Assembly: GCA_951406725.2 (NCBI GenBank)
Contig: OX597838.1
Span: 30,318,001-30,382,000 of the forward strand
Direction of reading: 5' to 3'
DNA: 64,000 nt
DNA from: Octopus vulgaris
Lineage: Eukaryota
Each line of letters opens with the position of its first letter. Position 1 is the first letter of the stretch. The translations under genes and the position numbers were made by a program. The notes below the pieces were generated by a model. It was not told the origin of the DNA, searched no databases, and saw only the letters and a program-made list of their open reading frames with translations. Shown here piece by piece: positions 14,845 through 49,190 of this stretch.

Positions 14845-15601
14845 AATATTACATTATATAATTAGGGCTTAGTAAAATAAATTACTTTGCCACATACTGA
14901 ACTTAGTAGAAATAGCAGCCAAAAAAAAAAAAAAAAAAAATTTTTCTTAGCATTTCTACTACTTAAAGAAAATTTCTCTCAGATAATGTTTACTCCAGAC
15001 AGCTCACGAAGGTTTGGGGGTAAATACAGAAAAATATCACAAGTACATAGATCGTTTGAGTACGTCAACGTTTCAAGATTAGCCAAATAAAATCAGCATT
15101 TCTTTCGTCAGCTCAAAATTTCTTAATTTGGATTTGGAAACACTAAAAAGAAGGAACTTTACCTATCAGCGAACTTGTCGCTTCAGATGAACCACTCCAA
15201 CTAAACAGTGTCAACAAATTCAAAATGCGCAGGCGTAAAATTCTGCACTCCCCATTCCACCCACGTGGTCTATCTAGCAAACATTATATTTTAACCGCGA
15301 GAACCGAGGCAGTATGACCGAGAGAAATGAATTATAATATCAACAATTGAGGGTAAAATTAATTAATTAATCAATTTCACCAAGTGTTCAGTATGTAAAA
15401 GGACCATTTAAGGCGAATTCAAAATATTACATTATATAATTAGGGCTTAGTAAAATAAATTACTTTGCCACAAATTTATTTTACTAAGCCCTAATTATAT
15501 AATGTAATATTTTGAATTCGCCTTAAATGGTCCTTTTACATACTGAACACTTGATGAAATTGATTAATTAATTAATTTTACCCTCAATTGTTGATATTAT
15601 A
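14845..15601 (-). mobile_element. Non-coding hammerhead retroelement (PLE-derived or retrozyme-like) with fold-back end
   Basis: Direct repeat 14845-14894 = 15423-15472 (period 578); inverted repeat 15333-15461/15473-15601; one hammerhead; (TA)n on both sides. Confidence 0.7.
15055..15117 (-). ncRNA. Type I hammerhead ribozyme motif
   Basis: Minus strand: TTTGAG-CTGACGA-AAGA...TCTT-GAAAC-GTTGAC-GTA-CTCAAA. Stem I 6 bp, full core, stem III ACG/CGT, GUA triplet. Confidence 0.85.
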
Positions 15602-16436
15602 TATATATATATATATATATATATATATATATATATATATATATACACGACGGGCTTCTCTCAGTTATCGTCTACCAAATCCACTCACAAAGCTTTGGTC
15701 GACCCGAGGCTAATGTAGAAGACACTTGCCCAAGGTGCCAGACGGTGGGACTGAACCCGGAACCATGTCGTTAGGCAGCAAGCTTATCGTATGGTATCCC
15801 ATTTACAAATCTGGGAGAACCACAATGCAGAGTTTTCAGAAGGCCAACATAAGCGTGGAGATATTTGTTTATTCATATCAGTGAGTCTCAATAGGGTCTG
15901 TGTGACCCCTGTGAGTCCATTAAGATGGAGTGGGGCGAGGGGGGCGTCCACGCAACAGAATAGTAAATTGGGGTTGACAATAATATTTTAAGGGCTCCAT
16001 GTGTGCATTGATATGTATTGCAAGAAACAGCTGGGTTTCTTTCTTTACCATTTTACATTGTTCAACCAACTACAAACGAATGAGTGAAGAACAAAATAGG
16101 GATTTTGAAAGGAGTTTTTGTTAAACTAGTTTTTAAACATTGAATGGCTATGAGGGTCCACCACAATAAAATAATAATGCAAGGGGTCAATAGATAAAAA
16201 AAAAGGGTAAGGAGCTGAGAACACTGATTTAGACTATGGCACTTACAAGTCTAGTCGGGTTTCTTTCAAATTCCGACATCATCAAAGTATCACACACAAA
16301 CACACACATGCATACACACACACATACACACACACACACACACACACACACACACAAATACACACGCACACACAGAGTAGAGATATATCTTTATTTTACA
16401 TGGGTAGGTATTTTCAATGTTATTTTTTTTACGAAA

Positions 16437-16827
16437 CCTTTATATATAAAAGAAAGGTTGTGTGTCTGTCTCCTACGATTTAGATTCCTAACTACTCCCA
16501 CATTTTGCGATGCAGTTTAACCAAAACCGGGTATCTTATAGTCGTGATTCATATCGAGCCCTTCTGGGTATTAGCGCGCGTCTACAATAAGTCTACGATT
16601 TTAAAAATAATTTACCATCAAATTTTTCCATTTTAATGCATATTTTTTTAATAAAGGGAAGTAACTCTCTAAAAATGTCTACGATGAGTCAACGATTTAA
16701 AAAAAAATTTACCATAATTTTTTTCCATTTTTAATGCATTTTTTGCTATTTTTTGTCTATAACTCTCTAAAAATGCTTTAAAGTTATTTCCCTTACAAAC
16801 CCGAGCAACGCCGGGCGATACTGCTAG
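16437..16827 (+). mobile_element. Non-autonomous Helitron family A
   Basis: Same sequence; ends about 43 bp before the 16871 exon. Confidence 0.8.
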
Positions 16828-16870
16828 TGCTTAATAATCCTGTACTGACATTTATTTTTTGAAATTCCAG

Positions 16871-17038
16871 CATGTGAGAAAAACATAGACGTAAACTTCG
16901 TGTTTGATTCCGGCATGTTGGGCGACCAAGGTACGGCGAACGTTGTTAAATTCATCGAGAGTTCAATTTCTGGTAAGGATCTTTCTAGAAGCAACATCAG
17001 ATTTGGAACAGTTGCTGGGCCGTGCAACAAAGTCTATG
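16871..17038 (+). CDS. vWA domain 2, N-terminal exon (PCEKNIDVNFVFDSGML...IRFGTVAGPCNKVY)
   Basis: ttccag acceptor, G|GTAAGA donor, 168 nt, phase 1-1; vWA strand A (DVNFVFDS) and strand B (IRFGTV). Confidence 0.88.
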
Positions 17039-45557: not shown

Positions 45558-47812
45558 TATGTATTTGTGTCAGTCCTGTTCGAAACGCTTTTACAGAAGA
45601 CAGTTGCCCACAGGAGGGCGCTGTGGTATCAATACTTAGAGCTATAAATACGTGCAGCCTGTGTGTAACTCCATTGTATGGTTCACGTTGATGATGATGA
45701 TGCTTGTTATTATAATCACCACCATCATCACCACCATCACCACCACCACCATCATCATCATCATCATCATCATCATCATCATCATCATCATCATCACCAC
45801 CACCACCACCATCATCATCATCATCATTAGCAGGTCCACCACCACCACCACCATCAACAACTACAACACCAGCGTTATCACCGTCGCCATCATCACCACC
45901 AACACCTTCACCGCCATTGCCGTTACCATGACGACGACCGCCACATCAACACAACCACTGCTGCCACCACTTCCACCACCACTACAACTACCACTACCAT
46001 CACTACTATTACCACCACCACCACCACCACCACCACCACCACCACCACCACCACCACCACCACAACCACCACCACCACCACCACCACCACCACCACCACC
46101 ACCATCACCACTACCACCACCACCACCACCACCACCACAATTAAACTCAACATTTCTTCAACGAGCCGCGCCAAAGAATTGTTCTTGATGCGGTTGGTCG
46201 ACCTACATAAATAGCAGCCAAAAATAAATTTCGCTTGACCCGACTTCATAATGGGAAGGACACATTAGACAAGGCAATCCTTGATAAACCAAACTACCGT
46301 TGGAGATTGTGCTGGAATGTCTTTGATCATTTCAGACCTGGACTGTCAGGCCTGACCCGGGGCTAAACAACCATAATGATCACAACTTCAAAGAGAAACC
46401 CACCACCACGACCATCATCATCGTCGTCATCATCATCGTCATCGTCGTCGTCGTCATCATCATCATCATCACCGTCAAAATCATCATCATCATCATCCTC
46501 ATTATCATCATCATCATCATCGTCATCGTCGTCGTCATCATCATCATCATCATCATCATCATCATCATCATCATCATCATCATCTACATTATCACAATCA
46601 CTACCGCCACCACCACGACCAGTACGACGACCACCACCATCATCATCATCATCATCGTCATCATCATAATCCTCCTCCTCCTCATCATCATCATCAACAT
46701 CATCACCAACAACAATATCATTACCATCATTGTCGTCGTCGTCATCATCATCATCATCATCGCCACTAACACCTTGTTCACCCCCACCATCACCACCACT
46801 ACCACCACTACCACCACCACAACAAAAACAACAACCCAGACCACCACCACCGCCACGCCGCCGCCATCTTTAACTTCCCCCTCTTCATCATCATTAACGA
46901 CATTCTTCTTATTATTATCCTTATTGTTGTTGTTGTTGTTATCATTATTATTATTAATCGCTAGACGGGTTCAAGGAGTTATTACTTTTTTTTTTTTTTT
47001 TCATAATCATCATTAATTATAAAGCTTGGCATCTTAATGAGTTTAATTAATGTGATGGTGATGGCTGTGCATGGGCGTGAGGGAGAAAAGAAGAAAAAAA
47101 AACGAAAACCAACGCCCTGGTATTGGATACTAAACGTTATATAATAACTATAATAATAACAATAATAACAATAATAATAACAATAATAATAATAATAATA
47201 ATAATAATAATAATAATAATAATAATAATAATAATAATAATAATAATAATGATAATAATAATGATAATAATAATAATAATGATAATAATAATAATAACAG
47301 TAATGGCGGTGGTTATTATAGTTGTTTGGAGGTCAAGAGAAATAGAACGTAAGGAACCCAGTACAATGGGACATTATAAACGAATTTGAGCCTACATGCG
47401 TTTATATATATACAAAGCAGAACGCACCCACATGCATGCGCATACTCGCACACGTATACACACACACACACACACACATATATATATATATATATATATA
47501 TATATATATATATATATATATATATATATGCATACTTACACGTAGAGACAAACACATAAACACAAGCAAATGTCGTATATATATATATATTTTTTTTATG
47601 TGTGTATATATATATTTATGTATGTGTATATATATATATATATATATATATATGTATACACACGCACATATTTATAGTCAAAATGAGGATATTTAAACTT
47701 CTTGTAAGGATTTTTTTTAATGATATATATATATATATATATATATATATATATATATTAAGTATAGGAAAGAATGGAGCTGAACGAAGATTTAACAAAA
47801 TTCCTTTAATTT

Positions 47813-47895
47813 ATTTTCGACATATGTTTCGAAGTCTGCAAAGTCCCAAATTCCGATTGAATGAGTCCATTTTGCAGCTTTCTCTTCAGGAAAAT
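47813..47895 (-). ncRNA. Type I hammerhead ribozyme motif (inverted copy of 47998-48083)
   Basis: Reverse complement of the same motif with a small deletion in loop II. Confidence 0.85.
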
Positions 47896-47997
47896 CCAGG
47901 AACTTAATTCTCCAACAAAATGCACAACAAGCTTTTCGACAAACGCTCACGAGGAGCCCACGAAATTGTGCATTTTGTTGGAGAATTAAGTTCCTGG

Positions 47998-48083
47998 ATT
48001 TTCCTGAAGAGAAAGCTGCAAAATGGACTCCTTATTCAATCGGAATTTGGGACTTTGCAGACTTCGAAACATATGTCGAAAAT
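47998..48083 (+). ncRNA. Type I hammerhead ribozyme motif with long stem II
   Basis: ATTTTC-CTGAAGA-GAAAGCTGCAAA...TTTGCAGACTTC-GAAAC-ATAT-GTC-GAAAAT; GUC triplet, palindromic stem III ACATATGT. Confidence 0.88.
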
Positions 48084-49190
48084 AAAATAAAATAAAATAA
48101 AGGAATTTTGTTAAATCTTCGTTCAGCTCCATTCTTTCCTATACTTAATATGTAAAACTTCAAATTTCCGCACTAAGGCTCGGATTTTATGCCCCATGGT
48201 CGTAACTTCAACCGTGCCCTTTCTGTTGTGAATTTTGCTACCCAGGTATCGGTTATCTTTCGAATTATCCGTAATAAGATAATTCATTTATCTACTTCAA
48301 TATATATATATATATATATATATATATATATATATATGTATGTATATATATATGTATAAAAGCATGCGTACATATACACACACACGGATACATACATGAA
48401 CTTACATGTAAAGCATTCTCTCTCTCTCTCTCTCTCTCTCTCTCTGTATATATATATATATATATATATATATATATATATATATATATATATATATATA
48501 TATATATGTATATGTATATGTTTATATGTATATGGATAGATAAATATATAGGTATCAATATAAATATAGATATATTCATATATGTACATATATATATACA
48601 TACATACATATATATACACACACACACACACACACACATATATATATATATATTACATACATACATACATTATATATATATATATATATATATATATATA
48701 TATATGCATACAGAGCGGGAGAGAGAGAGTGAGAGATAGATAGATAGATAGATAGATAGATAGATAGATAGATAGATAGATAGATAGATAGATAGATAGA
48801 TAGATAGATAGCTGCATATCCATAACGATATACGTGCACACTCAAAACACACACACACCTACACACACTTATGCATACAGACCATTGTCTTAGCATGCGG
48901 ACGATAACGGATACTTGCTGCCGATGACTCACGAACCGGCAGAAGTGCCGGATCTGGTAATTCCACCACCGCTTTCCGTTTGCAACTGATATTTCCGAGA
49001 ATCTTTTTTTATCACTGCACGTTCATGCACTCTCTCTCTCTCTCTCTCTCTCTCTCTCTCTCTCTCTCTCTCTCTATATATATATATATATATATATATA
49101 TATATATATATATATATATATATATATGGATAGATAAATATATAGGTATCAATATAAATATAGATATATGTATGTTTATATGTGTATGTA

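Follow-up and report, generated by a model that had tools for sequence, protein, structure and literature searches.

Judged by their sequences, five fold-back inserts in a stretch of Octopus vulgaris DNA were produced by Penelope-like elements (PLEs), a known kind of mobile element. We consider it probable that they are 5'-truncated insertions, into (TA)n, of three coding PLE families and one non-coding tandem family, and that the hairpin arises at integration: a single RNA would be reverse-transcribed from both nicked target strands, starting at two internal sites, and the copies would be joined head to head. The elements themselves are ordinary PLE products; what is new is a detail of one family (B), namely a 5' hot spot marked by a TATA box and an extra, cap-like G.

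The window (the whole stretch of DNA analysed) is 64 kb of the forward strand of contig OX597838.1, positions 30,318,001-30,382,000 of assembly GCA_951406725.2. A first-pass annotation had listed five (TA)n-bounded inserts with long inverted repeats, from four dissimilar sequence families; all five were located, and the inserts at 17648 and 43465 form one family among the four (A-D; Table 1). The inverted repeats lie at 15337-15597 (96.6% identity), 17650-17777 (100%), 40699-40885/41219-41405 (99.5%), 43531-43669 (98.6%) and 47759-48147 (87%, spacer counted in). A type I hammerhead descriptor detects 10 distinct cores in the 64 kb, nine in these five inserts, where the annotation had placed them, and one in a sixth (41831); 100 local dinucleotide shuffles give a mean of 0.18 cores per window and a maximum of 2. 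Insert 14845-15601 has one hammerhead, and the other four have two each, on opposite strands and directed away from the axis, as had been described; those of the insert at 40699 are of the U3-A8 core variant. The sixth fold-back is missing from the earlier list.

Table 1. Features of the fold-back inserts (window coordinates).
Feature	Position	Strand	Description
Family A long arm	14845..15466	-	1.08 units of 567-578-nt non-coding tandem repeat; 3' end is end-site 1; 97% to L116 tandem unit
Family A type I hammerhead motif	15055..15117	-	3-bp helix III; core begins at 15111, with cleavage predicted after 15061
Family A inverted short arm	15467..15597	+	Ends at end-site 2; carries ~90-nt tail; no hammerhead
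Family B copy 1 tail-less arm	17648..17713	-	Spans parent positions +1 to about +68 as a perfect 66-bp arm, the axis following 17713; hammerhead with core at 17709 and cut predicted at 17671
Family B copy 1 tail arm	17712..17846	+	Parent +1 to +137; putative transcription start 17712; hammerhead core 17718, predicted cut after 17756; tail; 94% to parent L416
Family C tail-less arm	40699..41223	-	GIY-YIG endonuclease C-terminal 74 aa (41224-41003); ~550-nt internal deletion; 3' UTR; U3-A8 hammerhead core 40786, predicted cut 40755
Family C tail arm	41219..41437	+	U3-A8 hammerhead core 41318, predicted cut after 41349; 32-nt tail 41406-41437
Sixth, older fold-back	41467..42017	.	Arms (80%) at 41684-41913; besides the intact U3-A8 motif (41831), a second that has decayed
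Family B copy 2 tail arm	43466..43602	-	Hammerhead core 43596, predicted cut 43558; tail 43466-43530
Family B copy 2 tail-less arm	43599..43669	+	Axis follows 43600; hammerhead with core at 43605 and cut predicted after 43643; 100% to parent L416
Family D tail-less arm	47759..47967	-	Hammerhead core 47889, predicted cut 47819; 94% to parent L418; extends 40 nt more 5' than its tail arm
Family D tail arm	47966..48299	+	Long-helix-II hammerhead core 48004, predicted cut after 48077; ~150-nt tail 48148-48299; 94% to parent L418

The window hammerheads are predicted self-cleaving motifs. An Rfam scan returned no hammerhead family among the 150 of 293 rows listed. Stem covariation among copies, proposed earlier as a check, is weak: in family D (16 sequences) the helices are 92% paired, one pair is changed on both sides, and 7 of 500 shuffles match the covariation, while the helices of the most numerous family, B, show no variation. 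Five of the eight shared-variant sites in family B fall in loops or at N7, and the remaining three look like junction misalignment and a one-arm deletion.

The annotation had suggested a mostly non-coding radiation of PLE origin. The origin is borne out, but only one family is a non-coding tandem unit; the other three are 5'-truncated ends of coding PLEs located elsewhere in the genome, two Hydra-like (B and D) and one Neptune-like (C). The parents of these three, which the annotation had proposed looking for, combine reverse transcriptase (RT) with a GIY-YIG endonuclease at the C-terminus, found for B, C and D and not for A, and carry a type I hammerhead within the pseudo-LTR (pLTR). The family B parent is a 5,189-bp pLTR-ORF-pLTR unit, with a partial-tandem pLTR pair 5,189 bp apart at four loci (L416, L417, L421 and L426); that of family D has an 891-aa ORF. 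Neither has a Pfam match, and both show YRDD and YIG motifs, with 247 homologues at E<=1e-20. The family C parent (L203) matches Pfam RVT_1 (E 3e-8) and GIY-YIG (E 3e-4, just under the cut-off); the endonuclease fragment in the window gives no Pfam match, but tblastn aligns it to L203 (88% identity, E 6e-35), and the DNA of its arm is 97-99% identical to L193.

Class was assigned by motifs. The translated B and D parents have DKT, no CCHH, and CxxC and CxH around E and N, which points to the Hydra clade; the CxCx5C linker of that clade is present in B and absent in D, which is why D is termed Hydra-like only. At the position of the clade's RWK motif, B has RWR and D has RWL, and the resemblance of both to Hydra-1_Obim was judged by eye. 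The CX2-5CxxC linker, DKG and CCHH endonuclease of L203 point to the Neptune/Nematis clades for family C.

Family A is a non-coding tandem unit of 567-578 nt with a strong predicted fold and the same integration signature as the coding families. Its hammerhead cores lie 567-568 nt apart in L116, two units stand in the flank of L418, and tandem, inverted and single copies at 99% occur genome-wide. The longest ATG ORF is 39 aa and GC content is 34%; non-LTR retrozymes are non-coding, with GC below 45%, and consist of tandem units each with a type I hammerhead, as here. We call the family retrozyme-like because its monomer is longer than the typical 150-450 bp. No coding partner was found among the GIY-YIG and parent loci, and family A is likely a retrozyme that borrows PLE machinery.

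Genome-wide, the hairpins are made anew at each locus, in agreement with the earlier proposal that they form during integration: axes and junctions vary between loci, and subfamily variants are mirrored across arms. Each family has two fixed 3' end-sites. These are paired in 26/27 fold-backs of D, 3/4 of C and 45/45 of B (mostly tail-picked samples), and the reported difference in length between arms is borne out. In all 55 family B loci chosen only by their axis, the tail is on exactly one arm; in two fold-backs both arms were scored as having one. Although (TA)n is very common in the window, it bounds 68 of 70 position-ordered copies of one family and only 8% of random window positions, which bears out (TA)n targeting. 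Arms agree at variable sites in 699 of 720 comparisons (562 expected if independent); the 21 discordances exceed background (1.0%), and 14 of them fall at one recurring small deletion. Mirroring fits one RNA molecule and two RNAs of one source locus equally well. In 16 of 76 fold-backs, including the window inserts of C and D, the tail-less arm extends beyond the tail arm on the 5' side by more than 10 nt; such uneven inner ends could stem from later deletion in the hairpin. Tail-less non-inverted copies also exist. Among long family B copies, no recombination between upstream and tail haplotypes was seen.

Our model builds on this observed parentage and on the observed (TA)n flanks, two end-sites, single tails, variable junctions and mirrored variants. 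It would involve (i) cutting of both strands of (TA)n by the GIY-YIG nuclease, (ii) annealing of each cut 3' end, at site 1 or site 2, with a short AU-rich patch, the interval between the two sites (about 30 to 150 nt) being the tail, and (iii) joining of the two cDNA ends by microhomology. In family B both cDNAs would usually reach the RNA 5' end, and the self-complementary AGCT found at +1 would account for the frequent perfect palindrome.

Other routes to a hairpin must be weighed. A tail-primed cDNA might instead fold at its own 3' end, be copied from DNA to site 1 and anneal to the other (TA)n end, which would still be a PLE product; the mirrored variants, one tail per locus, short templated axis spacers and the resemblance of site 1 to the TA target would all follow. 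We regard this as unlikely, since in the 16 uneven fold-backs the tail-less arm contains element sequence missing from the tail arm, and site 1 also terminates some non-inverted copies, some with an extra G. It is far less likely still that the short palindrome is a self-copying, SINE-like non-autonomous unit, transcribed from its axis and inserted whole. In family B, 706 copies do share one exact axis, and 30 near-identical whole copies were retrieved; however, that retrieval was biased by the query, the 706 stand against 4,949 tail matches, junctions differ widely among position-ordered copies, the most frequent spacer junction is seen in either orientation (12:8) and in four or more subfamilies, and the TATA region upstream is missing from the stubs. 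In part, the data also show that palindromic copies have no private mutations in common that are oriented with the tail, which speaks against such a unit. A whole-element query had pointed to a fixed palindrome, a reading dropped once copies were sampled by tail only and by position order. The long, nearly perfect inverted arms with their TA flanks recall MITEs or fold-back DNA transposons, in which the terminal inverted repeats would be fixed, TA would be duplicated at the target and the hammerheads would be incidental, but this can be practically dismissed: the arms are not fixed repeats but run from ~25 nt to >3 kb, the 3' end being fixed and the inner end variable, and they are the 3' ends of RT-coding elements. 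Under two-site priming, which we prefer, the template would be uncleaved in these copies because they span the predicted cut site, and the ribozyme would therefore be a passenger in the integration step; short stubs, being without the upstream promoter, are predicted dead ends.

Short family B copies begin where the hammerhead has its 5' edge. A conserved TATA box stands 29 nt upstream; of 12 distinct upstream sequences, 11 have it at -29/-30 and the other is a chimera. By hand counts, 67 loci join (TA)n directly at this +1 position, 40 of them with an extra G; control positions +30 and -10 give 8 and 3 direct loci, with an extra G in 0/11. RT can also add an extra base at any template end. 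In L1, an extra G is a sign of cap copying (PMC11702581), and we infer that a capped polymerase II transcript starts at +1, exactly where hammerhead helix I has its 5' edge. The position might, with a probability we put as low, mark an RT stop or processing site (structure, splice acceptor or cleavage) instead: the 5' strand of helix I falls at +1, the core is preceded by a pyrimidine tract and AG, and an intron of D. virilis Penelope ends at helix I (PMC4209133). The splice-acceptor version is rejected because the 5' ends retain the AG; moreover, 30 G-junction loci share no common upstream exon, the predicted ribozyme cut lies at +45 and the TATA box is at the canonical distance.

Only family B shows the cap signature clearly. 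Start sites guessed for family D gave 2 matches in one case and 12 loci, none with G, in another, and one guessed for family C gave three loci; none of these guesses is supported. In a related Neptune-like family the 5' hot spot is linked to a TATA box, but just 4/35 loci have the G. The ribozyme cut site in family B has ~14 direct (TA)n 5' junctions against 4-6 at nearby TA (hand count), confounded by TA and GAAG microhomology. A more speculative possibility, which we hold doubtful, is that pseudo-LTRs work like true LTRs. Driven by the upstream TATA promoter, a capped RNA would begin at the hammerhead; an RT dimer would hold it at two sites near its 5' end and make two strong-stop-like cDNAs, from the two target strands; and the hammerhead (start to cut, 45 nt) would serve as a terminal repeat for a cDNA jump to the RNA 3' end, rebuilding the tandem. 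The thousands of hairpin stubs would then be failed jumps, and a 570-nt circular retrozyme would ride the same enzyme. Poly(A)-to-cap jumps number four matches genome-wide, two with element ORF, A-run and G, which is too few to build on.

How PLEs make inverted repeats and tails, and what the hammerhead does, are questions that the available text of PMC8557442 (section 15) leaves open. This genome holds thousands of young copies (~5,000 tail matches in family B), whose junctions predict one start site per target strand, the same RNA, an uncleaved template and a capped start at the ribozyme edge. Our literature search, outside which lay subscription papers and bioRxiv supplements that may hold either, found no two-strand model of PLE inversion and no TATA or cap-G start in PLE pLTRs.

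Contrary to what the annotation had supposed, the inserts do not form a separate system: the inverted 5'-truncated copy, one-sided tail, (TA)n preference and minimal hammerheads are already described for PLEs (PMC8557442, PMC4209133). The EN+ PLEs of Craig et al. 2021 (PMC8557442) further share the partial tandem pLTRs and the placing of the hammerhead in the pLTR, but their tails are 30-40 nt, against about 32, 70, 90 and 150 nt here. Hydra clade PLEs, including Hydra-1_Obim, resemble B and D in the C-terminal endonuclease without CCHH, the DKT, CxxC/CxH, hammerhead and (TA)n, and B also in the linker; B differs in its 5.2-kb unit, whose 3' region of 3 kb is rich in microsatellites, and in the frameshift that most of its copies have, and D in the missing linker motif. 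The available supplement rows of that paper contain no exact match to any of four DNA motifs or to one protein motif taken from these families. Neptune/Nematis PLEs resemble family C in RT, DKG, CX4CxxC linker and CCHH-type GIY-YIG, and minimal hammerheads (PMC4209133, available text) in the palindromic helix III and U3-A8 core, with opposite-strand pairs 100-700 bp apart noted in Schistosoma; in family C, host and sequence alone are new.

Metazoan non-LTR retrozymes (PMC7229834; bioRxiv 10.64898/2026.07.22.740005; both in part) resemble family A in their non-coding, low-GC tandem units, one type I hammerhead each and strong predicted fold, but have monomers of 150-450 bp rather than 567-578 nt. 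Family A also differs in that its copies are scattered short multimers whose inversion and tail are of the PLE type and which are flanked by (TA)n; for these features a word search of the available text of those two papers gave no match. If confirmed as a circular RNA, it would offer insertion-level evidence that PLE enzymes move animal retrozymes, for which support to date is phylogeny and co-occurrence. The Anolis element Poseidon, as studied in vitro (Frangieh et al. 2024, PMC11167929), is alike in two internal RT starts bracketing the tail, extension of both strands, an AT-rich target and an uncleaved RNA template; one-site-per-strand pairing, head-to-head joining and cap or promoter mapping do not appear in its available text. 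The D. virilis Penelope promoter (PMC2377424, available text) likewise starts transcription within the pLTR, as family B would, but is internal and TATA-less, whereas in family B the TATA box would lie upstream, at -29, with the start at the hammerhead edge.

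Sequence inspection bore out the first-pass annotation on its five (TA)n-bounded, hammerhead-bearing fold-back inserts: all are present as described, and they fall into four sequence families (A–D). The genome measures 2.8 Gb, and a homologue named from Argonauta makes a cephalopod host likely. Inverted repeats show 96.6–100% local identity in four inserts, and 87% across a spacer in the fifth. A type I hammerhead descriptor finds 10 distinct cores in the window, nine of them within the five inserts (mean in 100 shuffled sequences: 0.18). The motifs fit the minimal hammerhead type of Penelope-like elements (PLEs), including the U3-A8 core and palindromic helix III set out in PMC4209133. 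Sequence variation lends them modest backing; flanks of loci fetched elsewhere in the genome hold 108 distinct motif variants, more than 20 of which lie outside all four families.

Positions of fold-back inserts and neighbouring features in the window
Feature	Positions	Description
Family A insert	14845-15601	Tandem unit of 567-578 nt, one hammerhead per unit
Family B insert	from 17648	Initial 137 nt from a unit 5,189 bp long
Family B insert	from 43465	Initial 137 nt of the same unit
Family C insert	40699-41437	Codes for final 74 residues of a GIY-YIG endonuclease
Family D insert	47759-48299	94% identity to 3' end of an element whose open frame spans 891 aa
Sixth (TA)n-bounded fold-back	41467-42017	Older, arms 80%; U3-A8 hammerhead, one intact and one decayed
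Further (TA)n-bounded palindromes	42557-43128; 43145-43412	No recognisable hammerhead; one nested, one with a family A-like tail
Open frame	16861-17025	Looks like a host exon
Tandem arrays	31203-31659; 62860-63416	183-184 bp period, abundant SINE-like repeat

The exon-like frame probably resembles the first part of a vWA domain, and an intronic position of the inserts is possible.

The family C endonuclease fragment shares 88% identity with an RT-endonuclease ORF at another place in the genome, and the insert matches parent DNA at 97–99%, with an internal deletion of ~550 nt. On account of its DKG motif, CX4CxxC linker and CCHH-type domain, the parent counts as Neptune-like. The family B unit consists, in order, of the hammerhead, a tail (the stretch between two fixed 3' end-sites), an ATG at +183, RT, endonuclease, a long microsatellite-rich 3' region and the repeated pseudo-LTR, where +1 is the inferred transcription start at the 5' edge of hammerhead helix I. 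Hydra-clade marks from section 11 of PMC8557442 occur in B and D, in D without the linker; at the RWK motif, B has RWR and D has RWL. In the B parents L416, L417, L421 and L424–L426, as in nearly all copies seen, the reading frame shifts between the RT thumb and the endonuclease; a single copy (L364/L420) stays in frame throughout.

Family A has a GC content of 34%, a longest ORF of at most 39 aa, and 1,537 candidate matches genome-wide (~99% identity in the 40 scored). It folds far more stably than its shuffles, with z = -6.3 as a circle; four PLE 3' ends, folded for comparison, score -1.0 to +1.2 (25 shuffles for each sequence). We class family A as retrozyme-like. The GIY-YIG and parent loci yielded no coding partner for it. 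Its 3' ends lie at either of two sites 90 nt apart in 29 of 30 retrieved copies, a sample that includes two loci fetched twice. A decayed, rearranged piece akin to the A tail region (79–88%) lies in the 3' region of a B parent (L181, 2615-2838).

Two 3' ends are fixed in each family, and in the parent AT-rich letters follow both. In B, the tail-less arms terminate between +63 and +76 (87/89) and the tailed arms at +136/137 (116/119). Inner ends range from tens of bases to >3 kb. A set of 70 B copies, sampled in their order along the genome, comprises 44 short fold-backs, 18 copies that reach at least 150 nt upstream and eight that are short and non-inverted. Exactly one arm is tailed in all 55 B loci chosen by their axis (the fold-back centre) alone.

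The hairpin arises separately at every insertion. The exact B axis occurs 706 times, versus 4,949 tail matches; other junctions carry deletions, microhomology or short insertions copied from a template. The commonest spacer (20 loci) is found in orientations of 12:8 and in at least four subfamilies. Subfamily variants agree between the arms of one locus in 699 of 720 cases, against 562 expected under independence. Arm discordance exceeds background, the main contributor being a small deletion that recurs next to the predicted cut site. This deletion, +44 to +49 in B, is confined to a single arm in 14 of 89 fold-backs, and may reflect RT slippage at the cut site or an assembly error. As for how the two arms are made, the tail-less arm extends >10 nt further upstream than the tailed arm in 16 of 76 fold-backs (13 show the reverse, 45 are level and two scored as having a tail on each arm). 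The pattern points to two RT events rather than the snap-back of one cDNA, with later deletion as a caveat.

B RNA likely has a capped start at the hammerhead, judging from its genomic junctions. Short sense arms begin at +1 in 21 of 52 cases and between -3 and +8 in 31, by automatic alignment in which the other arm blurs some calls. The base at -1 is T or C in B parents; nonetheless, G precedes +1 971 times. Many of these Gs could have been taken from the opposite arm, and direct joins to (TA)n were therefore counted by hand: 70 matches at 67 loci, the extra base being G in 40, T in 12, C in 10 and A in five. The same search at control positions +30 and -10 gave eight and three loci, none with G. 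Where a spacer is present and both arms begin at +1 (138 loci), a hand count found extra G on 79 of 100 arm ends listed. In full-length L1 junctions, extra G is a mark of cap copying (PMC11702581). Of 12 distinct B upstream sequences, 11 have a TATA box at -29 or -30; the D. virilis Penelope promoter is reported as internal and TATA-less (PMC2377424). Short B copies cross the predicted cut site, so their template was uncleaved, and 5' ends at that site are a minor class at most. Self-cleavage itself is predicted from the motif. In two chimeras (L427, L429), a fragment of the element's own ORF is followed by a short A-run and then by G and +1. They may be traces of a jump from the cap to a different RNA end, and a strong-stop-and-jump cycle based on these two copies would be speculation.

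A young Neptune-like family outside the window (L186, L190, L191) has an upstream ORF in addition to a 781-aa RT-endonuclease frame; its 3' region is LTR-like, with TATA and repeated TGACGTC and ATTGG boxes. The 781-aa ORF is open in 16 of 148 GIY-YIG matches. By hand count, 32 of 35 (TA)n junctions lie ~31 nt below the family's own TATA box; they show little G, and the hammerhead is far downstream of them. Guessed start sites in C and D gave no support. Thus, an upstream TATA promoter may be common to several families, but the coincidence of start and ribozyme is shown for B only.

The fold-backs are a real feature and fresh members of a known PLE kind. What the analysis adds is evidence for a capped start, a strict rule of one tail per fold-back, and a retrozyme-like family that bears the integration signature of a PLE. 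An octopus genome has already been annotated with PLEs, some recently active, in an account whose excerpt does not mention ribozymes (PMC13282606). The window families match PLEs as drawn in PMC8557442, with an inverted truncated copy and a one-sided tail, and their two fixed 3' ends agree with the two internal RT starts measured for a PLE in vitro (PMC11167929).
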